Assembly (NCBI GenBank): GCA_038087875.1
Contig: CM075989.1
Coordinates: 13,456,001-13,520,000 of the forward strand
Reading direction: 5' to 3'
Source: Malacoraja senta
Taxonomy: Eukaryota
Length of the DNA: 64,000 nt
Position numbers and translations under genes: made by a program. Below the pieces are notes generated by a model. It searched no databases. It was given only the letters and a program-made list of their open reading frames with translations, and had not been told where the DNA came from. Shown in pieces: positions 18,260-44,297 of the stretch; within the stretch, counting starts at the first letter, position 1, and every line of letters starts with the position of its first letter.

Positions 18260-18287
18260 ATGGAGCTGGACGAGTACCGGCGTCGTG
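18260..18287 (+). CDS. HDC: HDC exon 1 ([10 protein letters not shown])
   Basis: ATG in GGCGATGG context, donor GTGAGT at 18288, phase 1 matches exon 2. Similar to human MMEPEEYRERG. Confidence 0.9.
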
Positions 18288-21200: not shown

Positions 21201-24200
21201 ACAAATGTAGGTCCATTACAGTCAGAAACAGGTGAATTTATAATGGGGAAACAAGAAAATGGCAGACCAGTTAAACAAGTACTTTGATTCTGTCTTCACT
21301 AAGGAAGACACAATCTCCCAGAAATACTAGGGGACCAAAGATCTAGCGTGACGGAGGAACTGAAGGAAATTCACAATAGTCATGAAATGGTGTTGGGTAA
21401 ACTGTTGGGACTGAAGGTAGATAAATCCCCAGGGCCTGATGGTCTGCATCCCAGGGTACTCAAGGAGGTAGCCCTAGAAATCGTGGATGCATTGGTGATC
21501 ATTTTCCAATGTTCTATAGACTGGATCAGTTCCTGTAGACTGGAGAGCAGCTAATGTAACCCCACTTTTTAAGAAAGGAGGGAGAGAGAAAACGGAATTA
21601 TAGACCAGTTAACCGGACATTGGTAGTGGGGAAGATGCTTGTCGATTATTAAAGATGTAATAGCAACGCATTGGGAACGCAGTGACAGGATTGGTCAAAG
21701 TCAACATGGATTTAAGAAAGGGAAATCATGCTTGACTAATCTTTTGGAATGTTTTTAGGCTGTAACAAGTAGAATGGATAAGGGAGAGCCAGTGGATGTG
21801 GTGTATCTGGACTTTCAAAAAGCCTTTGACAAGGTCCCACACAAGAGATTGATATGCACATGGTATTGGGGGTTGTGCATTGACATGGATAGAGAACTGG
21901 TTGGCAGGCAGGAAGTAAAGAGTAGGAATTAATGGGTCCTTTTCAGAATGGTAGGCAGTGACTAGTGGGGTGCTGCAAGGTTCAGTGCTGGGATCGCAGT
22001 TATTTACAATATATATATTAACAATTTAGACAAAGGACACAAAGCTAGGTGGCAGAGTGAGCTGCGAGGAGAATGCCATGAGGCTGGAGGGTGACTTGGT
22101 GAGTGGGCAGATGCATGGCAGATGCAGTATAATGTGGATAAATGTGAGGTTATCCACTACGGTGGCAAGAACAAGAAGACGGATTATTATCTGAATGGTG
22201 TCAGATTAGGAAAAGGGGAGGTGCAATGAAACCTAGGTGTCCTTGTACACCAGGCACTGAAAGTAAGCATGCAGGTACAGCAGGCAGTGAAGAAAGCTAA
22301 TGGGATGTTGGCCTTCATAGCGAGAGGATTTTAGTGGAGGAGCAAGGAGGTCCTACTGCAGTTATACAGGGCCCTGGTGAGACCGCATCTGCAGTATTGT
22401 GTGCAGTTTACTTCTCCTAATTTGAGGAAGGACATTCTTGCTATTGAGGGAGTGCAGCATAGGTTCATCAGGTTAATTCCCGGGATGGTAGGACTGACAT
22501 ATGATGAAAGAATGGAGCAACTGGGCCTATATTCACTAGGATTTCAAAGGATGTGAGAGGATCTTATAGAAACATATAACATTCTTAAGGGATTGGACAG
22601 GCTAGATGCAGGAATTTTTTCCCCGATGTTGGGGGAGTCTAGAACCAGGGATCACAGTTTAAGAATAAGGTGTAGGCCATTTAGGACTGAGATGAGAATA
22701 TGCTATTTCAGCCAGAGAGTTGTGAATCTGTGGAATTCTCTGCCACAGAAGGCAGTGGAGGCCAATTCACTGTGTATTCAAGAGAGCGATAGATATAGCT
22801 CTTAGGGCTAACGGAATCAAGGGATATGGGGAAAAGCAGGAACAGGGTACTGATTCTGGATAATCAGCCATTATCATATTGAATGGCGGTGTTGGCTCAA
22901 AAGGCCGAATGTTCTTCAAACATGATCTTGTCAAAGATCTTATTGAGGTCTACCTAGACTGCATTGTTCTCATCAATATACTTAGTTACCTATTCAAAAA
23001 AATTCAATCAAACAAAGCAGGATCTCTTAACAAAGACACCTTTGATTATTCCCTGGAAGTGTAGATTAATCCTGTTCCATGTTTTTCAGTAACTTTCTTA
23101 CCCCCGACGTGAGACTCATTGCCTGTAATTACTTGGCTCCTTCCTGCTGCCCTTCTCGAATAAAGGCAGCATATCAGTGGTCCTCAATTTAAGTTTCTCT
23201 TTATTTTTAAAAGATTTTGCATTCCTGCCCTTACTGTCACAATGAACCACCTCACATTTCCCACCCTGCCTTTCTTTCCCAGATCTTTGACTACCCATGT
23301 CCCCATGCAGACTCTTTACATCCCCCTCCTCCCCAATACCTCATGTCCCACACACTCTGCAGATACTCCCCATCTGTAGGTTCAACATGGTCATGTGTTT
23401 ATAGGGTTGGGTGGCTGTTGGCAAGGGTGGAGGATTGGAAAAGTTTGGATGGGGGGGTATAATTGATGGGTATGGAGGAGAGGATGGGTGCAGGAAGGAG
23501 GTTTGGGTGCGGGAGGGTTCAAAGAGAAGGGGTGGAAGGGGTGGGTGTAGATGGGGATGGGTGGGGGGTGGCGGATTGGAGGTTTGAGGGTTTAGATGGG
23601 GAGAGGTTGAGTAGAGGTACAGATGATTGGGAAGGGTGGAGATAGAGGTTGGGAAATTGTATGAGAGATTGGGTTTGGATAGTGGTGTGGGGGAGAAGTG
23701 GACTGGTAATGGGATTAGGGAGTGAGTGTGTTGGGGAGAATAGGTTGGAGTCGTTATCTGGGGTAGGAGGGGTGAGGAGGGTTGGTGATAGGTGTGGCAG
23801 TGGTGGTCGAGTGACCCTGTGAAGTGTTCCGGTCTCTCCCCAGGGAAGGAGCTGGTGGATTACATCGCGGAGTATCTGAGCACGGTGAGGGAGCGGCGCG
23901 TCTGTCCCGATGTGAAGCCTGGCTACCTGTCCCTGCTGCTCCCGACCTCCCCACCCCAGGAGCCTGAGGCTTGGAGCAGCATCTTCAATGACGTCGAGAG
24001 GCTTATCATGCCCGGGGTAGAGCACTCTTTTCTCACTTCCCCACCCCCAGCACACCTCTTCCTGCCCAGTAACTCACCCAATCCCCACTGTCCTGTTCCC
24101 ACCCCCAGCATCCCACCCCCAGCATCCCACCCCCAGCATCCCACCCCCAGCATCCCACCCCCGGCACCCCACTCCGGCACCCCACCCCCAGCACCCCACC

Positions 24201-27200
24201 CCCAGCACCCCACCCCCAGCACCCCAGCACCCAGCACCCAGCACCCCACCCCCAGAACCACACCCCCAGCACCCCATTCCAGCACTCCAGCACCCCACCC
24301 CCAGCAGCCCACTCCAGCACCCCACCTCCGGCACCCCACCCCCAGCACCCCACTCGAGCACCCCACCCGCAGCAGCCCATCCCCAGCACCCCAGCACCCA
24401 GCACCCCACTCCAGCACCCCACTCCAGCACCCAGCACCCCACCCCCAGCACCCCACTCCAGGTCCCCACCCCCAGCACCCCACTCCAGCACCCAGCACCC
24501 CACCCCTACCACACCCCCCCCCACAACAGTCACAAAGCCCACTCCACGTTTCAGCACCACCAGCACCCCTCCCACAGCCCAGCCACCCATCCCCCACCCT
24601 TCCACACACGGTTCTTTGTGTCAGGGACGAGGATCTGGGGGAGGTCGGTGCCTGGGGATGTGGATGGGGATAGGGGCGTCAGGCTCCCAGCGGGAGGTGG
24701 TGTCTGGGGGCGAGGGTAGGGTGGCTGATGTTGGGGATGGGACTGAGGGTGGTCAGTGTTTGGAGGCGGCTGGTGTCTCGGGATGGGGATGGGAACGGTC
24801 ATTGTCTGGGTCTGAGGACTGTATGTGGGGATGGCCAGGCTCCCAGTGGGAGGTGGCGTCTGGGGGTGAGGGTGGGGACGGATGATGTCTGGGGATGTGG
24901 CAGCTGGTGCCCTGGGGTGGGCAAGTTCAGAGCAGGTCTCTAACTCTGCCTCTCTCTCCTGCTGCAGCTGGTCCACTGGCAGAGCCCACACATGCACGCC
25001 TACTTTCCCGCTCTCACCTCCTGGCCCTCGCTGCTCGGCGACATGCTGGCAGATGCCACCAACTGCCTGGGCTTCACTTGGGTAAGAATCACTCCGAGCT
25101 GGAGAGGACGGTCAGTGAAAAGGTGATGAGGGAAAGAAAGCATTGGTAGGAGTAGTGCTCTGTCCCCAAATAATGGCACACTGTAGGAAAGAGCAGTACT
25201 CATCAGTCGTGGGGTTTTTCAAAAGAGCAGGACAATAATTAAAGGCAATGGAGGTCTTTAATCTTTCTGTAGATGTATTAATCAAGTTGGAAATGGTAGC
25301 CCTAAGAATGATTTCATACTCAGGATAGTTTCCTAGAGCAATTCATTCTGGAGAATGAAGCAGAAAAAACAGTCTTGGGAAATCAACATGTTTTCATATA
25401 ACCTCCCTATAGTAATCAGGACCAATATCTGTTAAGAGATCAGTGACACTTGAGATCAGTGTAGGGCCTTTTTGGAGAGGGTGGTGAATCTCTGGGAATC
25501 TCTGCCCTGAATATTCGTGGAATCACTGATGGACTGTTTTTGATTTGCAGGCCTCGAGCCCCGCCTGTACGGAGCTGGAGATAAGCATGATGGACTGGCT
25601 GGCGGTGATGCTGGGGCTCCCTGATCACTTCCTACACCATCACCCCAACAGCCGTGGGGGTGGAGTGCTGCAGGTACCACGCGACCCCTCCCAGTGTTCA
25701 GCTCTCAGTCCTGACATACTCTGCTCAGTCGACGATACATCTCTGCCTTTCTCCCTGATTTTCTCCCACTCAGTGGCCGGACGTGACTGTTCTAGTACAC
25801 ACCCAGGCACTGACTAACTACAATGAGCTTTCAACAATCCCTCTTGGGAATAATTGAACCAAACTGTTAGTAATTTGTGCAAAGAATAGATTGAGGGAAA
25901 GTTGGGGAAGGAATTCTTTGGGGGGAATGTACCTTCTCAGCTGGCCTTGGCTTCCATCTTTTGCAAATGTGACTGGACATTGGCTTCTTGCTGCTGCCCC
26001 AAACCCTCTGCTGGTGGGACCTGAGTTGGTGCAGCCATGAGCAGCACAGGGCCTGGCTCAGGGTGGACTGCCCATCTCCCCAACAAAGGGACTTCCCATA
26101 GCTGGCATCAATCATAGGACACGATGGGAACTTTCCATTAACCTGAAATAACTGCCTCTGGTTAGATATTGAACAAAATTATCCCAAATGTCTTTCATTA
26201 TGAAAACTTATGAAGACAGAAGGAGACAATTCAGCCAATTGTGCCGATCTAACATAAAATGGGCTATTCCCACTTCCCGAGTCTTCGCCCACTTACCCGC
26301 CGAGCATGGCTGTTCTAGTACACATCCAGGCACTGTCTAAGCTTGGGATGGCATCTGTTCTCCCTCCTCGCAGTAAGTGGGTTCCAGACCCTAACCTTTC
26401 TCTGCATGAAAAAAACATTACTCTACATCGTATACTTCCCATTCCAAGGTTGGAAATGATCTAATCCCAACAACATCCTTGTAAACCTTCTTTGTAGCGT
26501 CATCACACTCTTGCCGTATGGTAACCAGAACTCTGCACTGTGCTCCACCAGTGGTCTAACTGGAGCTTTATTAACATCTGCAGGTTCTTGTATTTTATGA
26601 CTGTCCCACAAGAGCAAATCTCCTGTTTGCCTTCCTTCTCTCCCTAACCCTCACACGCTGGGTGCATGTGGAGTTTTGTAGTGGGATCCCTTAGTTTCTC
26701 CATTTATCAGTATCCCATTTATCATGTTTCCCCAACATTGTTTGTCCTCCCCAAATGCACCCTCACACTTCTCCAAACTACCACCCAGTGTCCATCTAGC
26801 CAGTCTGTCAATATCTTCCTGCAGATAAGAAACTATTTCCTCGCTCTCAGTGACATGGCCAAATTTAGTGCAAGAAAACAAGCTGCCAGCCTGCTCTAGA
26901 TCCCAGATGCCCTAACCTTTTGGACCAGCCCACCATGCAGTAACTCTGTCAAGTGCTTTACTAAGGTCACTGAGCTGATTTCTATTCAAATCTGTTCATT
27001 TCCCATTGGGATTCTGCTGCCTTTCACTTTGCTGAGCATTCCGTCACGTGGGACCTTGCCAACGTGGCAGAAATCTATGTAGAATACCATCCTTATCAAA
27101 TCTTTTCCCTCTTTCCCCAGAAAATCCAACTGGGATGTAATTTGGCCTGTTGAATGTTGAGCATCTCTGACTTTGATTTGATCCATGGAAACCAATAATT

Positions 27201-30200
27201 GGGGGGTGAGAACGGGCAAAAGCTACTGAGACGTGTGGCTTATCTGAGATCTCTACTGTAATCTAGTCACTAAATGTGAGAGTTGAGAGGCCATGTGTTA
27301 ACTTGGATTGTATATGCGACAGAGCACAGTCAGTGAGTCAACATTGATCGCCATGCTGGCTGCGAGAAAAGCCAAGATCGCGGAGCTGAAATCCAGTGAC
27401 CCTGGTGCGGATGATGCTGTGCTCGCCTCCCGACTTGTCGCATATGCCTCTGACCAGGTAAGCCTTCCCTCCACTACTCTTCTGATCTTTCTGCTCCCTA
27501 TTTAAACTCAGTAAAGATTCATTTCCAGATCATCAATTCCACTCGATACTACAGCAGTCTGATGTGTCATCAACAAATTTGATGCAGTTATTCCAACTTC
27601 ACTTAGAGGTAATGCTCAAATCCATAATCGCTTCCTCTTTGCTACTCATAACAACAATGGTAGGAGTGACCATTGCATATCCCTTAAAGAGACAAAAGCC
27701 ATCTTGACACCACAGACACTGCATCTTGTTCTGTGGCATTACTGTTGTGTTTGATGGGATAAACTCAGGACTGATTTGGTAGCTCAAAACGAGGCTTCCA
27801 TGAGGTCTTATGTACCATCAGCAGTGGGGAAAATTGTAGTTGCAACAATCTACAATCTCATGGCTCAGTTACCTGTGTTCTGTGAAACTGTTACCTGCGT
27901 CACATGGAGTTAAGGAGGAGCCAGGAGCAGTGCACCAGAAAATGAGGTGGATGCATGTGAAACAACTAAAGCAGCTTGCTGTAGACAGAGTGGAGCCATG
28001 TGAATCTCCATGTAATCTTCGAGGAAGACGTCACAAACCACTGCCAAAAATATGAGAGAGCCAAGACCCTGGTGGGGTGAGGGGAAACCATGTATCTGAT
28101 GGGCTTAGAGTTTCAATCATCCCTGTGCTTGCACATTTGCATCCGCTTTTCTTTAAACAAAATGTCCATATCACTGTGATCCCCTTCTGATCTACAACCC
28201 TCTGAGATCTCTACTTTAAATTTGGACTGTGTTGCTCATCCCGAATTTCATTGCAGTGCTATTGGCAGCCAAGCCTTTCACTGACTGGGCCTTTAACTCT
28301 GGAATCCCCCCTCTACCTTCTTCTTTCCTCTTTCATCAGTGTTTTGATCACCTGCTCTTATTGTCTCCTGTTCAAATTTGTTTGATAATTCCTGCTAAGA
28401 TGCACTTTGGAGTGTTTCACAGAACACAAAGCAGTGGTAAGGCTGTACTTGTATTGTGTTTAGTTTTGGTTACCCTGCCATAGGAAAGATGCCATTAAGG
28501 TGGAAATGGGGCAGAGAAGATTTATGGGGATGCTGGCAGAACTCGAGGGCTGAGCTATAATGAGAGGTTGGGCAGGCGGGACTCATTTCCTTGAAATGCA
28601 GGTGACTGAATGGTGATTTTATAAAGTTATTTAAATCATGAGAGGAATACAGAGGGTAAATGCACAGTCTTTCTCCTAGAGAAGGATAATCAAGAACTAG
28701 AGGGAACAGGTTTAATGTGAGGGGGACCTAAGGGCAACATTTTCACACATGGGTGTATAGAATGAGCTGCCAGGGGGAATAGTTAAGGCATGTATAATAA
28801 TAACAGCTAAAGAACATTTGGGTAGGTTTGGGGGGATACGAGCCAAACACGGACAAATGCAACTATCTTAGATGAAGTATCTTAGTCTGCATTCACAAGT
28901 TGGGCTGAAGGGCCTGTTTCCATGCTCTATCACTGACAGATCATGTAACTATTTTTTTGGAAGGCTCACTCTTCGATAGAGAAAGGAAGATTGATCACTT
29001 TGGTAAAACTCCGCTTACTAGAGACTGATGAAGACTTCTCTCTACGAGCTAAGGCCCTGATCCAAGCGTTGGAAGCAGATCGAAAATGTGGACTTGTTCC
29101 GTTCTTTGTAGGTTGGAAAATATTCCTGTTATTTTGTTGCTCCGTGAGATTTCTCTATTCTAAACTGTTCCAATAGGCCGCAGTAACATAATCTGCTCTG
29201 TACTCCAGTGAAGTAGTGAATTGTGACCAATATTTCCTCATGTGAAACATTGATTCTTGCTCACGGTCAAAGACAAACTAACTAAACAAATACTGCTAGT
29301 TGTCTGTGAATAAACTTCTGAAAAGACTGAGTTTGTGGAGTTGATCTGGGTGCACAGCCGAACACATCTAAACCCTGGGTGGACACAAAATGGAGAATGG
29401 AGCAGCTGGGCTTGTACACTCTGGAGTTTAGAAGGATGAGAGGGTGTCTCATTGAAACATATAAGATTGTTAAGGGCTTGGACACACTAGAGGCAGGAAA
29501 CATGTTCCTGATGTTGGGGGAGTCCAGAACCAGGGGCCACAGTTTAAGAATAAGGAGTAAGCCATTTAGAACGGAGACGAGGAAACACTTTTTCTCACAG
29601 AGAGTGGTGAGTCTGTGGAATTCTCTGCCTCAGAGGGCGGTGGAGGCAGGTTCTCTGGATGCTTTCAAGAGAGAGTTAGATAGGGCTCTTAAAAATAGCG
29701 GATTCAGGAATATGGGGAGAAGGCAAGAACTTGGAAAGAGTCGAGGGCAGAGGTAAAGGGACAGGTGTTGCATCTCCTGAAGTTGCAGGGATAAGTATCT
29801 GGGGAAGGGGTGGTTTGGGCGGGAAGGGACAAGTTGACCAGAGAGTTTCGGAGGGAACGGTCACTGTGGAAAGCAGAAAGGGGTGGAGATGGGAAGATGT
29901 GGCCAGTAGTGGGATCCCGTTGGAAGTGGCGAAAATGTTGGTGGATTATATGTGTATGTAACGGTTGATGTGGTGGAAGGTGAGGATAAGGGGGAGTCTG
30001 CATTGTTATGAATGGGGGGAGGGGGAGTAAGAGTGAAGCTGCGAGGAGACCCAAGTGAGAGCCTCATCTATAATGGAAGAGGGGAACCCCGTTTCCTAAA
30101 GAATGAGGACATCTCCGATGCCCTGGTATGGAACACCTCATCGTGGGTGCAGATGTGGCGTAGACGGAGGAATTGGGAGTAGGGGATAGAGTCTTTACAG

Positions 30201-33200
30201 GAAGCAGAGTGGGAAGAAATGTTCTCAAGATAGCTATGGGAGTCAGTGGGTTTGTAGTAGATGTCGATCAATAGTTTGTTACCTGTAGTGGAGACGGTGA
30301 GATCTAGAAACGATAGGGAAATGTCAGAGATTGTCCAAGTGGATTTGAATGTAGTTAGTGGTGAATTAGAATGGAAATTAGTGGTGAAGTTTGCAGTATG
30401 GAAATTATTGAAGTTTGTAAGATGGAAATTAGCGATGAAGTTTGCAGGTTGGAAATTAGTGACATTTGTAAGTTGGAAATTAGTGGTGAAGTTTGCATGA
30501 TGGAAATTTGCGGGATGGAAATCCCTGTTCTATGCATACACTGGCCCTATCCCCGAACTCTACCTCTGCTACATTGACGATTGCCTTGGTGCTACCTCCT
30601 GCACCCATGCCAAACTCACTGACCTCATCAACTCCTGGTGGCTCAGCACTTCAACTCCCCCTCCCATTCCCAGTCAGACCTTTCTCTCCTGGGCCTCCTC
30701 CATTGTCAGAGTGAGGCCCAGCGCAAATTAGAGGAACATATTTCATTTGGGTAGTTTACACCTCAGCGGCATGAATATTGACTTCTCTAACTTCAGATAG
30801 CCCTTGCTTTCTCTCCATCCCCTTCCCCTTCCCAGTTCTCCCACTATTCTTACTGTCTCCGCCTACATTCTATCTTTGTCCCACCCCCTCCCCTGACATC
30901 AGTCTGAAGAAGGGTCGCGACCCGAAACATCGGCCATTCCTTCTCTCCAGAGATGCTGCCTCACCCGCTGAGTTTCTCCAGTATTTTGTGTCTTCAATTG
31001 ATTTATACCAGCATCTGCAGTTCTTTCTTACACATTTTACCAACCCTGGGTGGAATTGTCTATCCATTGATAATCCAGGTTTGGAGATATTTTTAGGGGA
31101 GTCTCCAGACTTCAGCACCTTTGACTCAGAACCATGGGCCTGCACTCAAGGGTAGCTGATTTGGGGAACTTTGCCTGTAACTGTGACCAGTAGTACTCAG
31201 ACTCTCTGGCTGTCCCAGTTGTGGGTCACTGACGTGAAGTGATGAACACCTCCCACATCACTGCATCAGAATCAGTCGGTGTCCAGCGGTCCTTGTCTGA
31301 TGCCAGCCTTGCTTTGTTTTTCAGCTCTGTGCCACATTGGGAACAACTGGTGTGTGTGCCTTTGATTGCCTAAGCGAGTTTGGACCCCTCTGTGAGTTGC
31401 TGTTAGCTGAATTGGTCATAGTTTGTACATTTTTGGAAGCTTGGTTGTATTGGGATTTCATTCCTGCAGTGCAGTGACTGGAACTGTACTGAGAAAATCA
31501 TTGCCAGGATTCCCCTCAACCATCTTGTGATTCAAAGCTGCTGCTCAGCTCACACCATCCACCTGGAAGCCCAGTTGACATGATCACCAACTACAAGAGG
31601 AATGGAGGGATGCCACAAGAGAAACTGGAGTCAATTCAGTTACAGGAGGAGTGTGCAGACCATCTCCCAATCTTTACCAAGAAAACCAGAATGCCGCCTG
31701 GATCAGTGGGTATTAGCCATAATGAAAGATTGGACAAACTTGGGTTGATTTCTCTGGAATGTTTGAGGCTGAGGGGAAAGCTGATAGAAGTATTTAAAGT
31801 TATGATTGATAGGGTAGACAGAACCTTTTTTCTCTGGGTGGAATGGTCAAAGACTAGAGGGCACAGCATTGAGGTCAGGGAAAGAAAATTTAAAGGAGAT
31901 GTGCGGGGCACGTTTATTTACACAAAAAGTGGTTGGTGCTTGGAAGATGTTGCCTGGGATAGTGGTGAAGGCACATACGATAGTAATGCTTAAGAACTGT
32001 TTAGATATGCAAATGTATATGCACTGAATGGGTGGATATGAATCACGTGCAGGCAGAGAAGATTAGTCTAACTTGGCATCTTGTTCGGCACAGATATTGT
32101 GAGCCGAAGGGCCTGTTCCTTTGCTGTACAGATTTAAGTTCTATGATGGACACAAAAAGCTGGAATAACTCAGCGGGACAGCCAGCATCACTGGTGCGAA
32201 GGAATGGGTGACGTTTTTGGTCGAGACCCTTCTTCAGACTGGTTCGGGATAAGGGAAACGGTGATGTGGAGAGATAAACAACAACGAATGAAAGATATGC
32301 AAAAAAAGTAACGATGATAAAGGAAACAGGCCATTGTAAGCTGTTAGTAGGGTGAAAATGAGAAGCTAGTGCAACTTTGGTGGGGGAGGGATAGAGAGAG
32401 AGGAAATGCCGGGGCTACCTGAAGTGAGAGAAATCAATATACCACTGGGCTGTAAGCTGCCCAAGTGAAATATGAGACGCTGTTCCTCCAATTTGCGTTG
32501 AGCCTCACTCTGACAATGGAGGACACCGAGGACAGAAAGGTCTGAGTAGGAATGGGAAGAAGAATTAAAGTGTCCAGCAACCCGGAGATCAGGTTGGTTC
32601 ATGCGGGCTAAGCAAAGGTCTTTCGTCCAGTCTGTTTGGTCTCGCCGATGTATAAGAGTCCACATCTTGAACATCTATGAACTCTGCAACCACCCGTCTC
32701 ATCAGGCACTTCCTGCCCCACCGATGGTAGAGTCTACACATCTCACATTGGCCTCCTCAGCCACCACTGAAGTGAGTGGAATCAGATCATCATAGAACCA
32801 GAGAGACTGCCCAGTGAAACAGTGCTGTGGCCAAACTAGTGTGTTACATGGTTCTAGCATAATCTCGGCGATTTTCTATTCCTGGCCTATAAAACACACA
32901 GCTCAAATGTCTGTTTAACCATTTTTTCTGTCAGCTGCCTTTGGGGACTAGTGCAGACGGAATCCAAGTTCTCTCTGCTCCTGAATACCTTCTAGCTGAA
33001 TTAAATCAGGATTCAAGAGTGTTTTATTGTCCTACTAGACCAAGTGGGACCTGTGGGGTCCCTGTCACACGGGAGGCCTGGTCCCCCAACGCAACCCGTT
33101 CCCCAAGACAATATTCTCTCTCTCTATCTCTTTCTATGTCTCTTGGCCTAGCCCCTCCCCCCAACACACTGCCATTGTGACGCCTGCAACTGTAAGAAAC

Positions 33201-33700
33201 CTCTCATAGCACAGTAACAGTTATTCTGAAAATTTGGCCTTTTGAAACGTTTAAATATCAATAACGTGAAATACAACTTCAAATCTGAAGGAAACTTGAT
33301 AGGAACGACCACGGGACAAAGGTGCATAAGGTGATGCAAAAATGTAGGCGCTATCGTGTCCTGTTTTGGCGTAGGTCCCCCCTTTATTCACAAATCTTGA
33401 GTTTTTAAGTTTAAAAATGTAACATTTCTTGTAAAATATAGCCTCAAATGTGAAGAAACTTGATACGAACGACCATGGAAATAAGCTGAGTAAGATTCTG
33501 TAAAAAATGTAGCGCTATTGTGTACCGTTTTGGCGTAGTTCCTTGATCTCACAGACAGACAAACAAACAAGACGAGACTTTTAATAGTACATAGATGTCC
33601 TGAAATGGAACAATGAAATAATGAAATTCTTACTTGCAGCAGCACAACTGAAATGTAAACATAGTACTCTGTAAATACCATAGTAAACAACAAAAACAAA

Positions 33701-33742
<42 letters not shown>

Positions 33743-36700
33743 AAACAAATAGTGCAAAGACAAAAACAATGCCCCCAAGTCTATGTAGTTTGAAAATTAT
33801 TTTGCAGTTGTGTTTAATAGGCGGATGGTTGTTGGGAAGAAGCTGCTCCTGAACTTGGACATTACAGTTTTCAGGCTCCGATACCTTCTTCCCGATGGCA
33901 GCAGTGAAATGAGAGTGTCCTGGTTTATGGAAGGACAGTTATACCAGAATGCTTCTCTCCCTCTGTTGGGATGGGTAGTACATGCATAGGATACGTTTAG
34001 AGGGATATGGGCCAAACGCAGGCAGCTGGAACTAGTACAGATGGGGCATGTTGGTCGGTGTGGGCAAGTCGGACTGAAGGGGTTGTTTCCACGCTGTGTG
34101 ACTCTGACTCTGGTCCCCAGGCGCCCGGGAGGGGATCTGGCTTCACGTGGATGCTGCGTACGCGGGGTCCGCCTTCTTGTGCCCCGAGTTCCGCACACAC
34201 CTGCGGGGCGTGGAGTGGGCCGACTCCTTCACCTTTAATCCTGCCAAGTGGATGATGGTTCACTTCGACTGCGCGGCCTTCTGGTGAGGCCATCACCCCG
34301 CAAGTGACCCTTCGGCCTCTCGACCACTCTGCTGATCAGCCTGCTCCCCGCCCGTCCCCGCATCGCAAAGTCCCTCCACTTCAGCTCTTCATACGTCCGG
34401 CAATGGGCACTGTTCTCCGGAGCAGAGAACCGCCGACCCCACCAACACCACCACTACACCATGCTCCCCGCCCGTCCCCGCATCACCACCCGGCCAATCC
34501 ATCCCCGTCGCCTCCCCCTAGCTGCCATCCCCGGCCACTCCCCCGTCGCTGCTATCCCAATGCGGTCTCTCCCTCCGCTGCTATCCACCTGCGTCCATTC
34601 CACCCCCTCCCACCGTTGCTATCCCAAGACTCCTCTGTTCCACAGGGTCAAAGACAAGTGGAAACTGCAGCAGACTTTCGGGGTGAACGCCGTGTACCTC
34701 CAGCACCCCAATTCGGGAGCGACCGTGGACTTCATGGTGAGACTGGTGGGTGAGCGAGGGTGGGGGGCCCGGGACCGCGGGCGGGGCTGTTGTCTGCGTT
34801 GCTGTATCTTCTGCAACCAGCGGGTCCAAGGCTTCCGATTTCTCAATGGCGCTGGGACCGGGCGCCCACTGTATTCCCGGGACTTGGGACCCATCACCCA
34901 TGGTATTCCCGGGACAGTGGAACAAGGTGCCCGCGGTATTCCCAGCTAAACAGATTTGCTTTGCGCGCCGTGGTTTGTGTGAGCCCCGCCTTGTCTGAAA
35001 GCTCCTCTTATTCCCACAGAACTGGCAAATCCCGCTGAGCCGCCGATTCCGATCGCTGAAACTCTGGTTTGTGATCCGCTCGTTCGGGGTGCTCGGGCTA
35101 CAGGCACACGTCAGGCATGTGAGTGTTGGCGGATCCCCAGCAAACCCGCCGCTGTTTAGGGGAGGCGCGGGTCCGCGCTCCCACGACCCGACCCTTGTTC
35201 AACCCGCTGCCCCAGTCAACAGCGCCGTTAGGCGTTTCTGCTTCCGGCTCTCGAACAAACACGAGCCTTGTTTATCCAATATCTATTTCTGAAAGACTTT
35301 GTGATTAAGGGTTGTGGGATGATTGGGCATTAGTGACAGACGCCCTTTCATCTGTAGGAAGAAACTGCAGATGCTGGTTTAAACCGAAGATAGACAGTAA
35401 ATGCTGGAGTAACTCAGCGGGACAGGCAGCATCTCTAAAGAAAATGAATGGGTGACATTTCGGGTCGAGGCCCTTCTAATCAATCAGTCTGAAGAAGGGT
35501 CTCGACCAGAAACGTCAGTCATTCCTTCTCTCCAGAGATGCTGCCTGTCCCGCTGAGTTACTCCAGCATTTTGGGTCTCCTTCTCCACAGTGAATGAAGG
35601 AAAGGCGCAGAGAGGGGAGCTGGAGCACAACTCTTTTCTTGTCTTCGCAGTTAATATTTTAGAGCTTACATTGGTGGCTCTCTGAACCTGGGAGCTGGGC
35701 TTGGACGCATTCAGTGGCAATCCGAAGGAATGCTTTAAAGTGCCAGAGAATTCAAATCTCTGACTGTTTAACGTTTCCAGGGTTCTTGCACCTTTCAGGA
35801 AGAGAATATATTTTCGCCTCCAAGTGAGAGTTGGTTCTCGTCTTGGTCTTTTACTTTCCTGCAATCCGTTCTAATTCCCACTGACTATTGGAAGATGTAG
35901 TATAACCATAGAAAAGTATCCAGTAGAACGTAGAAATTAGAGATGGACCAGTGATGGTCTTCAAGGCCCCTGTCCATCCAGTGGTACAGACTAAGACCCA
36001 CATTAAAGCAAACATGCTGCCTCATTATTGCTTCCCACACGAAATCCAAGGCAATTTGGATCTGTTAATGCAGCCTTTCAGGAATACCATCCAGTCACTT
36101 ACCCATGGTGTCTGTCAATAAGACTAGCCCCTAACGTGTAAAACTTCCAATAACCTGCCCATCCACTTTCCTCAAAGTCCCATTGCCTTCCTTTGCCCCT
36201 CCACATAAATTTTTGTCTTGCTGAATTTTAACGGATCAACAGCACTAACAGACGAATCTTCTCGATGAACAGGGTACAGAGATGGCAAAGTACTTCGAGT
36301 CCTTGGTTAGAAGTGATTCACGTTTTGAAATCCCAGCCAAGAGACACCTTGGGTTGGTGACTTTTCGTTTAGAGGTGAGGAAATTTATTACATATTAGTG
36401 AAAACCATTCAATGATGCGTCACTGCCTCTTGTATCTATGGTCATCAGCTGCAGCCTACTTTAGAGGTATTGTAGTATCAGTTGCTCACTGCAGGATACA
36501 ATGCCAGACCTGCCCTGTGGTCGTGGGATTTACATGGCTGGTCCAGTTGAATTTCTAATCAGCTCACTTTCTACATCAATGCATCTAAGAGTCCTTCCAT
36601 TTATTGTATACTTTCCTCTTACATCTGACCTCCAAAAGTGCAACACTTCACACTTGTTTAGATTAAACTCTATCTGCCACCTCTCTGCCCATATGGCCTT

Positions 36701-38107
36701 GGTAAACAGAAAGTGATTCAAAGATTCTGTTGGAGCATCCCAGAACAATTTCAAGATTTTCACACACCACTGGGAACAAGCATTGGGTCATCCTGTTGGT
36801 ATATCCGCATAAAACATGTTGCTCCTTCGTACAAGGAAGGTAGAATGGAGGAAGCAAAGAGGAAAAGAGAATATCAAAATCAAGAACTAGTGTTGCTACG
36901 GATGCTACAACATCCTTATCCATCTGTTAAGGGATATGGAGAGAAGGCAGGAACGGGGTACTGATTGTGGCTGATCAGCCATGATCACATTGAATGGCGG
37001 TACTGACTCGAAGGGCCGAATGGCCTACTCCTGCACCTATTGTCACTGTGAACTGAACCTTTGAGCCTATTTGATCTATATCCCAATTTGATCTATATCC
37101 TGCTGCATCCTGACAATCTTCCTCACTATCCACAACTCCAATTTTTATGTCGTCTACAGACATACTAATCAGCCAATACTATATTTTTATCCACGTGCAT
37201 CTTACTGCACCTTTTCTAGCTTTATGACTTCCTTCCTATAACTGCACACAATATGCCATGTTGTCTCACCAACATCTTATATAGCTACTAGACTAAATGG
37301 GACCTGTTGGGTCCCAGTCACAGGGGAGGCCTGGTACCCCAACGCAACCCGTTCCCCAATGCAATATTCCACCACTCACGCCTATCACCTCCCATCAAAT
37401 ACACCCCTCCCTGCACTTGTTTCCCAATGTCTCCCTTTTCAATAACACTTTCCAATTCCTTACCATTTATTGTAAAGTTCTGCCCTGGTTTAATTTACCA
37501 AAATGCATCACCTCACACTTGTTCAAATTAAGTTCCAGATGGTGAGAGCTGTGTCCTCATTATTGCACGGCAGGGGTGGTATGTGTTAAGTGTAGCTTTG
37601 TGTGCTAAATGGGATCAGTTCCAAGCACCACTGAGTCCAATCTGCTGGGTTTGCTCGTCAGTTAAAAAATAATGCTGCTAATTAAATGAGTGGTAGAGAG
37701 TTGCTACAGAGAGCTATCAGTGGACACCATTCTCCTTGCTTGTGGGTTTGGGAATTGTCACACAGAAGGAGATGGCTTGCGACCCAGTGAAATTGCAAAG
37801 TGAGCCGAGTAGATACGTCCCCACATATCGAAGTTGAATGTGACGTTTTCTGCATTGATTGCCGAGATAATCGACAACCATTAATATTTGTTTGTATATA
37901 CAGGGAACAAACAGTCTGACTGAAGAACTCCTGCAAGAACTCATCCAATCGGGCACCATGTACTTAGGCCCAGCCACCATCAACAAGCTCTTTATCATCC
38001 GCTTTACCGTCACTTCTCAATACACCACCAGCGGAGACATTCTGCGGGATTGGAATATCATCCAGCAAAGTGCAGACAAAGTCCTAACAAGAAGTCCCCA
38101 ACATTAG
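18260..38107 (+). CDS. HDC: Histidine decarboxylase (group II PLP-dependent decarboxylase), complete 12-exon CDS, 1443 nt = 480 aa + stop
   Basis: join(18260..18287,23844..24016,24968..25081,25551..25673,27323..27457,28964..29107,31325..31391,34121..34283,34646..34736,35020..35118,36273..36374,37904..38107). All introns are GT-AG and the frame is open throughout. Motifs: [31 protein letters not shown] (PLP Lys), [10 protein letters not shown] (HDC-type Ser, where DDC has Gly). Syntenic with GABPB1 and SLC27A2. Confidence 0.96.
18620..18840 (-). mobile_element. V-SINE copy in HDC intron 1
   Basis: Reverse complement of ggcacggtggcgca...cagcgccagagacccgggttcgatccc. Confidence 0.75.
19501..20847 (-). 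mobile_element. Rex1/Babar LINE, 5'-truncated, RT nearly intact with one in-frame stop
   Basis: [38 protein letters not shown], stop then [24 protein letters not shown]; (TTAC)n tail. A short 3' copy also lies at ~2936..3020. Confidence 0.9.
20955..22912 (+). mobile_element. CR1 LINE, degenerate
   Basis: [42 protein letters not shown]; multiple frameshifts and stops. Confidence 0.9.
23844..24016 (+). CDS. HDC: HDC exon 2
   Basis: ccccag acceptor; [28 protein letters not shown]...[11 protein letters not shown] donor at 24017; 173 nt. Confidence 0.95.
24090..24510. repeat. C-rich degenerate minisatellite (CCCCAGCA/CCCCAC units) in HDC intron 2
   Basis: Direct inspection; source of spurious Pro-rich and Gly-rich ORFs. 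Confidence 0.9.
24968..25081 (+). CDS. HDC: HDC exon 3
   Basis: ctgcag acceptor; [44 protein letters not shown] donor; 114 nt. Confidence 0.96.
25551..25673 (+). CDS. HDC: HDC exon 4
   Basis: ttgcag acceptor; [43 protein letters not shown] donor; 123 nt. Confidence 0.96.
27323..27457 (+). CDS. HDC: HDC exon 5
   Basis: [19 protein letters not shown]...[16 protein letters not shown] donor; 135 nt. Confidence 0.95.
28964..29107 (+). CDS. HDC: HDC exon 6
   Basis: [48 protein letters not shown]; aag acceptor and GTAGGT donor; 144 nt. Confidence 0.94.
29393..29728 (+). mobile_element. CR1 3' fragment inserted into a Penelope element
   Basis: [16 protein letters not shown]...[14 protein letters not shown]; absent from the duplicated copy at 61724..62140. 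Confidence 0.85.
29729..31032. mobile_element. Rearranged Penelope-like element (minus-strand RT/GIY-YIG part plus an inverted plus-strand part)
   Basis: Minus: [38 protein letters not shown]. Plus 30540..30632: [13 protein letters not shown], followed by the 3' terminal repeat. Confidence 0.85.
30352..30524. repeat. Minisatellite of alternating 27/24-bp units (tggaaattag...aagtttgc) inside the Penelope RT
   Basis: About seven tggaaat-anchored units; inverted copy at ~60928..61100. Confidence 0.85.
31325..31391 (+). CDS. HDC: HDC exon 7
   Basis: tttcag acceptor; [28 protein letters not shown] donor; 67 nt. Confidence 0.95.
32146..32675 (-). mobile_element. Penelope 3' fragment (GIY-YIG end plus terminal repeat)
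   Basis: VAGHFNS...[19 protein letters not shown] on minus, followed by the terminal-repeat motif. Confidence 0.8.
33035..33595 (-). mobile_element. Non-autonomous Helitron in HDC intron 7
   Basis: Minus strand begins TCTATGTACTATTAAAAG and ends gggaccccacaggtccc hairpin + CTAG; inserted between A and T without TSD inside a Rex1-like tail. Confidence 0.8.
34121..34283 (+). CDS. HDC: HDC exon 8 (PLP-binding lysine)
   Basis: [24 protein letters not shown]...[20 protein letters not shown]; Lys codon AAG at 34246-34248; 163 nt. Confidence 0.96.
34646..34736 (+). CDS. HDC: HDC exon 9 (catalytic loop Tyr)
   Basis: [30 protein letters not shown]; Tyr codon 34695-34697; 91 nt. Confidence 0.95.
35020..35118 (+). 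CDS. HDC: HDC exon 10
   Basis: [39 protein letters not shown] donor; 99 nt. Confidence 0.96.
35355..35578. mobile_element. Palindromic Penelope-derived mini-element
   Basis: Inverted arms atgctggagtaactcagcgggacaggcagcatct / agatgctgcctgtcccgctgagttactccagcat. Confidence 0.8.
36273..36374 (+). CDS. HDC: HDC exon 11
   Basis: [40 protein letters not shown] donor; 102 nt. Confidence 0.95.
37288..37405 (-). mobile_element. Helitron 3'-end fragment
   Basis: ctag-actaaat-gggacctgttgggtccc, same terminus family as 33035 and 54015. Confidence 0.7.
37904..38107 (+). CDS. HDC: HDC exon 12, coding part ending at TAG
   Basis: tacag acceptor; [67 protein letters not shown] then TAG at 38105-38107. Confidence 0.93.
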   Translation, partial: GTNSLTEELLQELIQSGTMYLGPATINKLFIIRFTVTSQYTTSGDILRDWNIIQQSADKVLTRSPQH

Positions 38108-39224
38108 ATGACCTCTTGAGCGATGGATCAGCCAAGTGCCAGATTTTGACAGCTTTATACAAGGAGCCACAAAAAAAGTAATTGCGTGTGAGGTTCAGGT
38201 TAATATATTGTCGTGGGTCGGGAGTGGTTTTAGGATAGAGGGGCAGGGTAAGTGGGTCAGAAGAACATAAGAAACAGGAGCCGGGCTATCTACTCCTTCA
38301 AGCCAGCTCCACCATTCGCCAAGATCACGGCTGATCTTCCACTTCCAGCGTCACACAGCACTGTCCCCCACATCCCCTGTTTCCTGTCAGATCCACAAAT
38401 CTATCAACCCGTCTACTGAGTGAACAGTGAATGAATTCCACTGCCCATCAGGACAGAACATACCAAAGATTTCTTAGCTATTAAGTAGTTCCTCCTTACC
38501 TCCTTACCTCAGTAGTTGTTCCCTTATTCTTAAACTGTGCTCGCTGACCTTAGACAGTTCACACAGGGAAATAAATGTTCTTAAATCTAGACAGAGAAGC
38601 TGACCCAATCGGCTCACAGCACCATGGATCCAGCATTACCAATGTCCGATACATTCACAATAAGACTTCGTCTCTTGCAATCAAATCCTCTCATTGTAAT
38701 GACCAACATATCATTTGCTCTTCCAGGCACTCGTGTTGGCCTTCAGCGACTTGTGTAAAAGTACACCTGCGGCTCTCTAAACATCAATGTACCCACCCTC
38801 TTGCTGTTCAACAACTATGCACTTTTACTGCTTGGTGCAACAGACTCTCATTTTCTACATTATATTCCATCTGCCATGTCCTCACCCATTGCCTCAGCTT
38901 ATCCATGTCCTGTTTTACATTTTCCTTTCTACTCAATTATGCCTAGTTTAATATCACCAGCAAACATGGAAACATGACATTTGATCACCTCAGCCAATTA
39001 CTGATAGATTGTGAACAGCTGCATCCCGAGCAGCAACTCCTCTTGTACCCATTGGTCACAGCAGCCAACTTGATTTATCTATTTATTTATTACCACTCTT
39101 TGCTTTCTGTCCGACATTAATTTTCAATCCATTGCAGTACACCAACCTGTTTTCCTGCGTGTGGGACTTTATTGAAAACCTTCTGAAGATCCAAATTCAC
39201 CATATCTACTGGTATCCCCATCTC

Positions 39225-39495
39225 TATGGAGATACAGCGTGGAAACAGCCCCTTCAGCCCATTGAGTCCACGCCAACCAGCAATCACCCATGCACTGGTT
39301 CTACCCTACACATTAGGGGCAATTTTACAGAAGTAATTTAACATCTTTGGAATGTGGGAGGAAACCAGACACCCGGAGAAAACCACACAGTTACAGGGAC
39401 AACATACACACTCCGTACGGACAGCACCTTTTGTCAGGATTGAATGCAGGTATCTGGCACTGTAAGGCAGCAACTGCTGCTCCACTGTGCTGCCA
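39225..39495 (-). mobile_element. V-SINE copy
   Basis: ctttggaatgtgggaggaaacc core and tRNA-like head on the minus strand. Confidence 0.7.
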
Positions 39496-40930
39496 CAATA
39501 CTGCGAGTCACATCCACAAATAACTCCAATAGATTTATCTTTCACAAATCTCTTTATTCCTTTCTAATAGAATTTCCTTCTATTACCCATTTCTTTATAG
39601 ATTATATTATTGTCCCCACTGGCATTGGGCTGACAGATCCGTTTTCTCTAACTCCTTTCTTAAATAATGAGGTTAAATTTGTTCCACTCCAAACCACAGG
39701 AATAAGCCCAGAATCCACAGAATCTTGCAAGATGATAACAAGAGCAACCACTCCTCCATAGCTGCCTCTTGCTATCCCAAGCCCTGGGATATAGATCATT
39801 GGTCCTTGGGATTTTCAAGCTTACCAACTTCTGTGCTTGAAAGCTTTGGGTGTTTTCTTCCACAAAGACAAAATACTTGGTTAATTCCTCTGCCATGCCC
39901 CTAACTGTAAGGGCTAAATTTGTCCTTGCTGCTCTTTCCAACGCCTGCAAATTTACAACTTACCTACATTTTTGTCCAAATCATCTGCATATATCTGAAG
40001 AAGGGTCTCGACCCGAAATGTCACCCATTCCTTCTGTCCAGAGATGCTGCCTGTCCCGCTGAGTTATTCCAGCATTTTGTGTCTACCTTTGATTTAAACC
40101 AGTATCTGCAGTTCTTTCCTATACATATAAACAACAGAGGTCCTAGCATTGATCCCTGTGGAAAACTATTGGTCCGAGACCTCCAATCACTAACCTCTGT
40201 CTTCTTTGGTCAAGCCAATCTTGAATCCATTCTACCAAGTCTTCATGGCTCACATTTGTCTTAATCCTGTGGATCAGCCTATGATGAGGGACCTTGTCAC
40301 ACGTTTCATGAAAGTCCATGCTGATAACATCTATTGCTCTACCTTCAATGATCCTCATTAATTTCCCCCCAAAACCCAAACATTTACAAGTCATGACCTC
40401 CCCAGCACACAACTATCCTTTGATTTAACATCATCTTCAATTTCTCTTGTCAGGCACAAATGAATAACTTTTTCTTTTGAGATTTTATGCCTTAAGGAAA
40501 ATTTATTTTGCAACTTATGCACCACTTCTTTAAATGCCGCCCATTACCTGTCCTGCCTCGCACCTTTTGATGTGCTTTCCCAGTTAACTGCAGTTAACTT
40601 TCTTCTTATACTTTAATTTGTCTGGATTTCAGATGCTAGGTTCACATTAAAATTACATCACTTTTGAATTTAAGATCAAATTCTATATATTATGGTAATT
40701 CTTCCTCAAAAGCCCCTTGACAAGAAGGTAATTAATCAACGCTTTTGCATTGCATAAAGATGCTAAACAGCATCCCTGGTTGGTTCTTTAACATTTTGAT
40801 AAAGAAGCACAACTCATATACATTCCACACATTTATCTACCTCTTTATTACAACAAATTTGATTCACCTGTATTTGATTCACCGCCTCTACATGTAGGCC
40901 AGTCTCCCATGATGACCCCTGTTCCATGTA

Positions 40931-41189
40931 CAGTGCTGTCCATAATGTTTGGGACAAAGACCCATCATTTATTTATTTGCCTCTGTACTCCACAATTTGA
41001 GATTTGTATAAACACAGCTGTAATTTCTACATGGTGAAACGAAAATGTATAAAAATGGCCTTTATTAAAATCTGACAAAGTGCACTTTAACCACATGTGA
41101 TTTTTTTCTATTACAAATCTAAAATTGTGGCGTACAGAGGCAAATAAATAAATGATGGGTCTTTGTCCCAAACATTATGGAGGGCACTG
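40931..41189. mobile_element. Tc1/mariner-type MITE
   Basis: TA|CAGTGC...GCACTG|TA, ~75-bp terminal inverted repeats, TA target duplication; partial copy at ~46137..46196. Confidence 0.9.
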
Positions 41190-42451
41190 TACCTTGTTTG
41201 CAGAATGGCAATCATTAACTAAAAGAGTGCTGCAGGCTCCATACTTATGATCTACAGTGAACCCTTGGAATGAACGGACCAGAAGCCAAACTTGTTGATG
41301 ATACAAAGACAGATTTGCAAGTTGTGATGAGGATAGAAGAGCCTGAAAATTATAGATGGATTAAGTGACCAGGCAAGATGTTTCCGTAGAAAGTGACTCA
41401 GAAAAATGTTTCCGTAGAAAGGGATGCGGGATCTCCACAATGAAACACAAAATGTAAGAATGCAGATGCAGCAAGGAATCTGGAAGGCAAATAGAATGGT
41501 GGCCTTTGTTGCAAAAATGACATGGATTATAAAAGTTGCCAAGTTTCTGATGCAACTTTAAAGGGCACTGGTGACACTACACCTGGAATATTGGGGCACT
41601 GTTTCAGTCTGGGTTTTTTAGAAAGGGCGTGCTTATTTTGGAGGCAATGCAGATACCGTTCTCCAGGTCGATTCTTACAATGAAGGATGAAAGATTAAGC
41701 AGGTTGGGCCTACGGTATGGAAAAATGAGAGGGGATCTTATTTAAACAGGTAAGATTTGAAGGGGATTGACAGGGTGGATTCAGTGAGATTGTTCCCCCT
41801 GTGGGGGCATCTACAACTAAGATGCACAGATTCAGAATAAGGGTCACCCATTTCAGTAGATGCAGAGCAATTTCTCTTTTCATATCACTGTGACACTTCG
41901 GCATACTGCAAGTTTTGTGGGGACAGACAATGAATATCTTCAAGGTGGAAAGTACAGATGCCCCTTATTTCATGGAGTCGAAGGGTAGGGAGAGCAAGCA
42001 GGGAGGTAGAGTTGATGCCTTGATCTTACTGAAAGGTGGCGCAGTCAGAGGGGCTGACTTGCCTACACCTGGTCTGGTCATTGTTGTTCTAATGTACTGT
42101 TAACTGGAGTAACTGTACCTGGAAAAAAGCAGATGTGTGCAAGTTAACCTGTGGCTACTTGAGGTCAATGTGGAAATAAAACAGTCAACCATACAATGAG
42201 CTGTCTTCATTTCAAAATGATTTCTAATCAACAAAAAATGGGTCTGTTTTCTGAATTTCCTGCCTGGGATACAATCCATTGAGTGAAGCTAGACCAGGAC
42301 ATGGTGGAGTTTATCGCCAGTGCTGGAAACATTTTGGGCCGGGACTTTTGTTTTAAAATATGAATCAGTGGGCAGCAAAGGCTCATCCCAAATTAAGCAA
42401 GTTTCTGGGACATGACATTCTGCGATTACAAAGGGTACAAGTTCAAAGGCC

Positions 42452-42457
42452 TTTATT
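42452..42457 (-). promoter_or_regulatory. SLC27A2: Candidate polyadenylation signal of SLC27A2
   Basis: AATAAA on the minus strand (tttatt on plus), about 240 nt after the stop, in an AT-rich UTR. Confidence 0.45.
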
Positions 42458-42694
42458 TAATACATCCTTTAATTTTTTTTTATAACTATTTCTATTTTCC
42501 TATCTTTTTACAAGAAACATGAATCTCCATTATTATTGAAACATTTCATCTCATGTCCCACAAAATACCTGCACAATGATCTTTCATATATCACCTCAGA
42601 GTCAGGAAATACCTTTATACAAACCACTAGAATTAAAATAGAACCGAAAGCCAGTACCATTTACCTAACTGTCTGCGTTGGAGCAGTTCTACAG

Positions 42695-42871
42695 TTACAG
42701 TTTGATCTGGTTACTGATAATAGTTTGATAGGACTCTTGATCCATTGGAACATAAGCTTTTTTCTTGTCATCAAGGATGAAGAGGCTGTCGTGGACAACA
42801 TCCGGATTAAAACCTTCCTTAACCAGAGTCACTTTATAATATTTAAAGGTCCCTGTGGTTTCTATCGCTTT
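42695..42871 (-). CDS. SLC27A2: Very long-chain acyl-CoA synthetase / FATP2, last coding exon
   Basis: Minus-strand tttcag acceptor; KAIETTGTFKYYKVTLVKEGFNPDVVHDSLFILDDKKKAYVPMDQESYQTIISNQIKL then TAA. SLC27-family C-terminus; the A2 assignment relies on synteny with HDC. Confidence 0.88.
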   Translation of the reverse strand, partial: KAIETTGTFKYYKVTLVKEGFNPDVVHDSLFILDDKKKAYVPMDQESYQTIISNQIKL

Positions 42872-43594
42872 CTGAAAGAAAACAAAGTTGGTTACTGACA
42901 CTGCCCCACCAATATTTCTCACCCCAAACATCAACTTTACTGAGCCCCCAACCTGCTCCTGCAAACAGCCTTTGCCCAATATTGCCCCATCACCACTACC
43001 TCACACTCACTACCTTGTCTTTCCTCACTGCTTCCACCTCAGACCCTAATAAATACCAGAAACCCATCATCTCATAGGTCCCCACTCTCTTCCAGAGACC
43101 AATTTCCTCAGCCCCTTCTCCCCTGTCCCCCCCCAGACCAGTTCTCTCACCCTTCCCAGACCAGTTCCCTCGTCTCCCAGACCTGTTCCCCGCCTTACTG
43201 CATCACCTCCCACAAAAAGTTGTAGACACCTCCCAAAAAAAGTTGCAGACCGCCCACCCTCCCTGCTCATGCTGAAGGGACAAGACTCCGTCAGCATGGG
43301 GTCACCCAAGGGTAAAATGTGCAAAATAATGGCACAGTGCAAGGCTGGGTGGTTGAGGCAGGAACTATGGGCAGGGTGCTAGGTGCGGGGGGCCAGGACA
43401 GGCCTTCCCCATCAGTGTGAAAACATTCACAACCAAGTTAGAGTGTGTAGAGGGAGATGTGGGTTCCATCAGAGCAGATGAGAAATCACAACTGATTGGG
43501 GTAGAGAGGTAAGTGGGTGAGGACAGATGTGGGATGAATTGGGGGATGGGAGGGTAAATGGGGCATGCTGTGTGGGGATGAGATCTGGGTCAAT

Positions 43595-43710
43595 AGGGTG
43601 GGATGAGATGGGGTGAGTGGGTGTAAGCTGTGGGGATGAGATGGGGTGAGTGGGTGTAAGCTGTGGGGATGAGATGGGTGAGTGGGTGTAAGCTGTGGGG
43701 ATGAGATGGT
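43595..43710. repeat. ~32-bp tandem repeat (ggggatgagatggggtgagtgggtgtaagctgt) in the last SLC27A2 intron
   Basis: Three near-perfect units within a longer G-rich tract. Confidence 0.85.
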
Positions 43711-44297
43711 GGTGAGGGGTGGGCTGTGTGAGGATGAGATGGGGGCAAGCAGGGTGGGATAAAATAAGGGGGTGAGTTGGTGTAGCTGTAGGGATGATAT
43801 GGGGGTGAGTAGGGTGGGCTGTGGTGGGAAGGGTGAGTGGGCGGTCTGTTTCATGGAGCAGGTGCAGACAAGGAGGACCATATTCACTGGAGAGCTGTAA
43901 AGAACAGCACAGGGAATGAGGAATTGGGATGTGCATCCGACAGGGATGTGCAACTGGCAGGCATGGACATTGAATCAATGGTCACCATGGTGTCTTATTC
44001 CAGTGTACACACTATAATTTCTCCACCCCAAAAAAATCTATTGATGGAACCAGGTAGGGATAGAGCTTTTGGAACAAGCCAATTACTCCAACATGGCTGA
44101 GTTGCAACAAGGTGCATCCTGGGCTTCGGTGTTTCACCTCTGAGTGCACATGACTTGTAACCTACCGGTCACAGCATCAGTGACTGCTGCAGACCCAGAG
44201 CTCAGGTTGGGGGGGGGGGGGTGGGGGAGCAATCAAACCAAACCCCCACAGCACCACACAGAACCATCGAGGATCTTTGATGTTGACTGAAGCTCAC

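Follow-up and report, generated by a model that had tools for sequence, protein, structure and literature searches.

Secondary loss of the regulatory tail as the likely origin of a 480-residue histidine decarboxylase in the skate Malacoraja senta

INTRODUCTION

When a histidine decarboxylase gene stops after 480 codons, is its product active as made, or is the missing part lost to an error, hidden in another exon or decaying with the gene? In mammals the 74-kDa histidine decarboxylase (HDC) is little active, its 20-kDa tail is believed to be inhibitory and drives translocation to the endoplasmic reticulum (ER), and a 53-kDa dimer is the active form, according to the reviews PMC6019440, PMC6359378 and PMC6164962. 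PMC6164962 adds that maturation in vivo is not fully characterised and that the exact active fragment is unknown. We analysed the HDC gene in 64,000 nt of Malacoraja senta (GCA_038087875.1, contig CM075989.1, positions 13,456,001 to 13,520,000 of the forward strand; this whole stretch is called the window, and positions below are counted from its first base). The original prediction, made from the sequence, held that this gene directly encodes an enzyme of mature size, either by ancestry or by lineage-specific loss. We conclude that it is an ordinary skate HDC gene whose last exon, as sequence comparisons make likely, has secondarily lost the ~190-residue regulatory tail of jawed vertebrates, and whose product would be active as made.

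RESULTS

The window gene encodes HDC of mature size without the long tail

Exons were located by tblastn with a skate HDC query and then joined by script. The gene comprises 12 exons on the plus strand, from 18260 to 38107, with GT-AG at 11/11 introns, and the joined coding sequence of 1443 nt translates into 480 residues (54.0 kDa) with a single stop. The predicted length, the start of exon 12 at 37904 and the TAG at 38105-38107 were all recovered. The coding part of exon 12 (37904..38107, residues 414-480), delimited by the joined coding sequence and by contigs, runs through its final 12 residues to the TAG; the stop had been placed directly after ...SADKVL, and its position stands, with the six residues TRSPQH intervening.

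These six residues are all that follows the core, and the ~190-residue tail with its RSLSC-like and KKLxKF motifs is absent. When a hidden Markov model (HMM) of 141 long tails was run against all six frames of the window with stops read through, the best match had E 2.7, and as a positive control a tail HMM built from bony vertebrates only matched the tail of the shark Heptranchias at E=3e-36. The earlier statement that no remnant of a tail is left is therefore right for the mammalian motifs and wrong in its general form, since short tails found in other rays are homologous to 38087-38126 (see below). Direct encoding of a mature-size enzyme agrees with the mass of 54.0 kDa, with intact catalytic residues and with the lack of any tail-coding exon before the neighbouring gene SLC27A2.

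The catalytic core and its orthology

The Leucoraja protein, 96% identical to that of the window, matches PF00282 at E=1.8e-159, and the window protein carries the cofactor-site residues K304, D272 and H193, which places it among the group II decarboxylases dependent on pyridoxal 5'-phosphate (PLP). Ten of the 12 human active-site positions that were checked are conserved, among them the PLP lysine, His193, Asp272, Tyr333 and the specificity serine; the window protein differs in having Phe80 and Ala303, which are found in 95 and 12 rows of a 153-row alignment. Serine at the human 354 position occurs together with Y80, L102, F104 and Y334 (human numbering), the residue set that we take to mark HDC; the role of Ser354 is known to us from the title of a cited paper. 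Overall, 350/474 residues are identical to human HDC, and the protein ends at human position 481, four residues beyond the end of the crystallised human construct (4E1O-type, 477).

In a tree of cores from HDC rows, with no DOPA decarboxylase row, the window protein falls within skates (100/99) and rays (100/100). This position, the 12 exons as in human and the adjacent SLC27A2, which also lies next to HDC in the human genome, identify the gene as an HDC orthologue. Judged by its residues, tree position and gene structure, the gene is a true HDC and not a proenzyme of mammalian type. It has none of the marks of a pseudogene, given the open 1443-nt frame, the 11/11 GT-AG introns and the intact catalytic residues, with a weak intron-2 donor read from sequence only. 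The structure that AlphaFold predicted for the Leucoraja protein was of low quality (mean pLDDT, the predicted local distance difference test, 57); its best fold match was human HDC 4E1O, and it was given no weight beyond the sequence match. A Pfam search with three single-exon queries gave no match.

All exons lie on the plus strand and are set by the joined coding sequence, with residues assigned by alignment. The ATG at 18260, also located by tblastn, opens the coding part of exon 1 (18260..18287), followed by exon 2 (23844..24016), exon 3 with Tyr79, Leu101, Phe103 and a private Thr98 (24968..25081), exon 4 (25551..25673), exon 5 (27323..27457), exon 6 with His193 (28964..29107), exon 7 (31325..31391), exon 8 with Asp272 and the PLP lysine Lys304 (34121..34283), exon 9 with Tyr333 (34646..34736), exon 10 with Ser353, equal to human Ser354 (35020..35118), and exon 11, also covered by contigs from related runs (36273..36374). 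Exon 2 has the weakest donor of the gene: GGG|GTAGAG (24014-24022) agrees with the consensus at 4/9 positions, and the nearest better site lies 52 nt downstream and out of frame. Two residues common to skates are Arg200 in exon 6, where 140/152 other rows have Gly, and Ala303 in exon 8, beside the PLP lysine, where 141 others have Ser; both may affect kinetics.

The stop codon is genuine and shared by skates

The possibility that the TAG is a read error, raised with the original prediction, was checked against contigs of sequencing runs. A contig from run X1, of the same organism, spans 37491-38700 with 0 differences, and is possibly the source of the assembly itself and hence not independent. 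Contigs from X9, X15 and X22, which belong to three other organisms, lack base 38106 and stop at the same codon with TGA instead of TAG. Another stop comes one to four codons after the first: in the three relatives it follows directly, and in the window it is the in-frame TGA predicted four codons on, found at 38117-38119. The same C-terminal residue ends three named skate proteins and three contig proteins.

Of the 1032 nt of the X9 contig, 739 nt lie on 37902-38641 and the other 292 nt correspond to exons 9, 10 and 11. Moreover, the X9 and X15 contigs show equal depth on exons 11 and 12 and none on the unique intron bins (37544-37879), and are thus apparently spliced RNA reading through the stop region. 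The unbroken cover by the X9 contig traces the 3' untranslated region (UTR) over 38108..38641. A splice out of exon 12 into a tail-coding exon, the other way in which the short end could have been misread, is not seen in this contig, which passes unspliced through the stop and through a donor-like site at 38248. Because the same-organism contig matches, the contigs of three relatives place their stop at this codon and two contigs that look spliced cross it, the TAG is a genuine stop, not a sequence error, and is common to skates.

The donor-like site itself is strong (AGG|GTAAGT, 38245-38253, 7/9 consensus positions) and lies 140 nt past the stop; if used, it could create a 3' UTR intron that triggers nonsense-mediated decay. 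The 3' UTR contains AATAAA at 38570 and is, by eye, repeat-derived from ~38262, with raised depth at 38300-38383.

Tail length across sharks, rays and other vertebrates

Elasmobranch counts refer to the 21 named shark and ray species retrieved. The distal KKLxKF motif is absent from 20/21 of these species and present only in Heptranchias, whose tail of 198 residues aligns with the human tail to its end, through the last cysteines. Elasmobranch HDCs end at nine or more different points. After the core there are 6 residues in skates, 10 in sawfish (Pristis), 15 in three species of bamboo and epaulette sharks, 18 in three species of stingrays and mantas (42 in one further model), 36 in Narcine, 42-45 in lamniforms, 88 in Mustelus, 90-93 in catsharks, 99 in the sawshark (Pristiophorus) and 129-130 in whale shark and zebra shark. 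The last three species retain recognisable partial tails (tail HMM E 4e-7 to 0.009). In most lineages sister species share their end points, which argues against errors of the models.

Outside elasmobranchs, 141/143 matches with the anchor motif have a tail of at least 130 residues. The two exceptions are teleost models, Symphorus of 489 residues (tail 14) and an Oreochromis model of 499 residues (tail 21), which could be model errors or further losses. Lamprey HDC-like tails measure 34-42 residues in 14/15 of those listed and 11 in one fragment; neither these nor invertebrate tails are matched by the vertebrate tail HMM, and the tail may be a jawed-vertebrate invention. Each lamprey species carries several HDC-like copies that are nearly identical, short-tailed and have Thr where human HDC has Ser354. 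No chimaera HDC was among the matches listed, which were the best 120 of 1647 and the best 150 of 452. A tail-only search with Heptranchias 475-672 returned only itself (1/746 candidates), a result limited by the word index and no evidence of absence. The HDC annotations of Hypanus and Mobula hypostoma are each divided in two after residue 316, by an annotation split or a real break, and the models of Hemitrygon and Mobula birostris are whole.

Because the Heptranchias tail is homologous to that of bony vertebrates, and nearly all non-elasmobranch matches are long-tailed, sequence comparison places a long tail in the common ancestor of sharks and bony vertebrates and makes the shortness of skate HDC derived. 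The suggestion of an ancestral length like that of DOPA decarboxylase thus fails for jawed vertebrates; that of a lineage-specific loss survives as a loss, one not peculiar to this genome and in fact the norm in skates and in most sharks and rays sampled. The core tree shows a long ray stem branch (0.11) and leaves the elasmobranch base open; on the accepted species tree, at least three independent tail losses are required. Whether sharks and rays have three or more times shed the proenzyme control that bony vertebrates retain almost without exception, and make histamine without a protease switch, is in our judgement evenly balanced.

DNA behind the skate stop corresponds to short tails of other rays

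The stop-spanning stretch 38087..38126 on the plus strand is homologous to the short tails of sawfish, in the coding frame, and of stingrays and mantas, in another frame. The sawfish tail aligns without gaps, and the sawfish stop falls on the second stop of the window, TGA 38117..38119 (p=0.003 in one test; in a second, 0/300 shuffles were as good over 33 gap-free columns ending at 38119). The tails of stingrays and mantas match at an offset of 5 bases (p<=0.011 for 4/4 in one test, 0/300 shuffles for 3/3 in the second). A third-frame match of Narcine is weak (p=0.90 and 5/300 shuffles). Since rays read the same post-core DNA in at least two frames, coding would no longer have constrained this DNA, and the skate TAG would be a minor step taken afterwards. 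The second TGA is probably the older ray stop, and the alignments suggest that early rays were already without the tail.

That the skate 3' UTR is a remnant of the start of a shark tail was tested in four ways and found unsupported. With a shark tail profile, p was 0.94 for the window, 0.24-0.54 for stingray and manta tails and 0.004 for a bamboo-shark control, and in a post hoc pairwise test 2/18 fell below 0.05.

Neighbouring features of the locus

SLC27A2 (FATP2) adjoins HDC tail to tail, its last coding exon lying at 42695..42890 on the minus strand (upper bound approximate), which leaves at most ~4.6 kb for any extra HDC exon. Only its last two exons were recognised (42695-44444, minus), and scanning for short motifs gave no exon of the gene further upstream within the window. 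A 200-base N gap (46521-46720) lies just upstream of these exons; the introns of SLC27A2 may be long, or the assembly may break the gene.

An inverted partial HDC copy occupies 59896-63246 on the minus strand. Its blocks correspond to the exon 4 region (93%, 1011 nt), to intron 6 up to the start of exon 7 (99.9%, 1623 nt) and to a piece of intron 7 (89%); exon 7 is truncated and the exons in between are absent. The copy has the look of a recent duplication that has decayed; for the 99.9% block, gene conversion or an assembly artefact is another possibility. Reverse-transcriptase fragments of long interspersed nuclear elements, seen in open reading frame translations at 14830-16570, 19687-20859 and 21129-22885, are ordinary repeats, two of them 81% alike. 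An Rfam search of 36000-46000 gave no match.

DISCUSSION

A model of tail loss and its consequences

In the model that we favour, selection on the tail would have ceased at an early point in ray evolution and, independently, in two shark lineages. With the distal inhibitory part lost, frameshifts and nonsense changes could have eroded what remained, and the new skate stop would have arisen four codons upstream of the older ray stop. The enzyme would then bind PLP at Lys304, dimerise and convert histidine to histamine directly after translation, with no protease step. As the tail that takes mammalian HDC to the ER is missing, the protein is probably cytosolic, with an output set by transcription and turnover as in DOPA decarboxylase. 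Taken together, a skate HDC that is active as translated, cytosolic and controlled at these two levels appears likely to us. In rat deletion work, an inhibitory element reportedly lies near the far end of the tail, which serves here as a lead only. If it is right, the staggered ends are explained, because the first truncation would remove inhibition and the rest would erode neutrally.

Several points weigh against this model. Inhibition by the tail is known from mammals only, and for skate HDC the loss of proteolytic activation, which we infer because the tail is absent, and that of ER translocation are read from sequence. The end points come from predicted models, and five lineages (Pristis, Narcine, Mustelus, Pristiophorus and Heptranchias) have a single model apiece. 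The runs behind the contigs are not recorded as RNA, the row of the exon 11-12 joint is not among the rows shown, so that splicing is deduced, and none of the apparently spliced contigs comes from the organism of the window. The founding frameshift from a full tail is likewise conjectural: shark tails matched the skate 3' DNA in 0/8 cases in each of two tests, leaving homology undetected, and a teleost tail (Albula) also beat all 300 shuffles, showing that the shuffle test can give chance matches. Finally, the protein has four private changes at conserved positions (T98, F258, I267 and G435) against 0-2 in three other skates, and the intron-2 donor is weak (4/9).

These last two points belong to the rival that survives best, namely that skate HDC is under relaxed selection, that the copy of this species is weakened or poorly spliced and that tail loss has little physiological effect. 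The four changes sit on a short branch of 0.018, and one of them, Gly435, is backed by the X1 contig and stands where 152/152 other rows have Ile or Val; the weak donor, the decayed partial copy nearby and the long ray stem branch fit as well. However, the frame is intact over 12 exons with all catalytic residues kept, identity to Leucoraja is 96%, long-branch taxa reach up to 7 private changes by the same count, and relatives appear to express spliced HDC. We consider decay in place of deregulation unlikely.

Positive selection could also have favoured tail loss in sharks and rays, as a way to supply histamine quickly and without a protease, for example in gastric acid secretion; this is compatible with the model of tail loss above. 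The loss is repeated, against retention in nearly all non-elasmobranch matches, but the staggered end points fit neutral erosion equally well, and the literature search gave nothing relevant; drawn from the pattern of loss in the sequences, this proposal seems doubtful.

That a tail is nevertheless produced, through alternative splicing from exon 12 or read-through of the stop, is highly improbable. Contigs drop rare isoforms, and the strong donor-like site at 38248 is at hand, though it lies past the stop and so could not itself add a tail. Against this, no frame of the window holds tail-like sequence, the next gene is 4.6 kb away, in four organisms the first stop is backed by another one to four codons on, and the X9 contig runs unspliced across the stop and the 38248 site alike. 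Equally improbable is that the short form is ancestral and cartilaginous fishes were never tailed, which the short lamprey proteins would favour but which is refuted for skates, unless the Heptranchias model is wrong, by the homology of its tail to the human one, by the partial tails of whale shark, zebra shark and sawshark and by the nesting of rays inside elasmobranchs in the core tree.

If secondary loss is correct, the tails of 6 to 198 residues in sharks and rays form a natural deletion series for mapping inhibitory and ER-targeting elements in vivo, and a directly encoded mature-size HDC, beside relatives with intermediate or full tails, offers natural constructs for the role of and need for the tail. 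It would also bear on differences in histamine signalling in stomach, brain and immune cells of cartilaginous fishes. The reach of this is modest: HDC is a familiar enzyme, RefSeq already contains the short skate proteins, and the finding implies no novel chemistry.

Comparison with known systems

Human HDC (662 residues) resembles the window protein in its 12 exons, its catalytic residues and, within four residues, the length of its active construct. The window protein lacks the mammalian 187-residue tail, and with it the site of proteolytic activation and the tail-borne ER-targeting region described in PMC6359378 and PMC6164962. DOPA decarboxylase has the same group II PLP fold and a similar length and, according to PMC6164962, is also tail-less; the window protein differs from it in the HDC-type serine at 353 and groups with HDC. 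On the sequences compared, its DOPA-decarboxylase-like length is a secondary loss and not shared ancestry.

Lamprey HDC-like proteins (e.g. XP_061414378.1) are, like the window protein, short and without the jawed-vertebrate tail; they are more divergent, with 292-296/477 residues identical to human, have Thr at the Ser354 position and Gly at 304, and are HDC-like by similarity. HDC of Heptranchias perlo (XP_067827329.1, 672 residues) has an elasmobranch core ~80% identical to the Leucoraja protein and keeps the full tail with an altered distal motif (KKLKKF against KKLIKF/KKLTKF). We found no literature on loss of the HDC tail in sharks, rays or cartilaginous fishes in a search of titles and beginnings of abstracts that left most subscription journals outside.

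The closest counterparts are the HDCs of other skates. Those of Leucoraja erinacea (XP_055517276.1) and Amblyraja radiata (XP_032906412.1) have 480 residues and the same end point, with 461/480 (96%) and 459/480 residues identical to the window protein, and that of Rhinoraja longicauda (XP_078283303.1) ends at the same C-terminal point. Against these skate models the window is set apart by T98, F258, I267 and G435, and against the contigs of three related organisms by TAG where they, one base shorter, read TGA. The original prediction had named a tail-less norm in the lineage as something that would lower its novelty, and at database level this is the case. With the 480-residue skate length already in RefSeq, the interesting part is the repeated loss across the group rather than the single gene.

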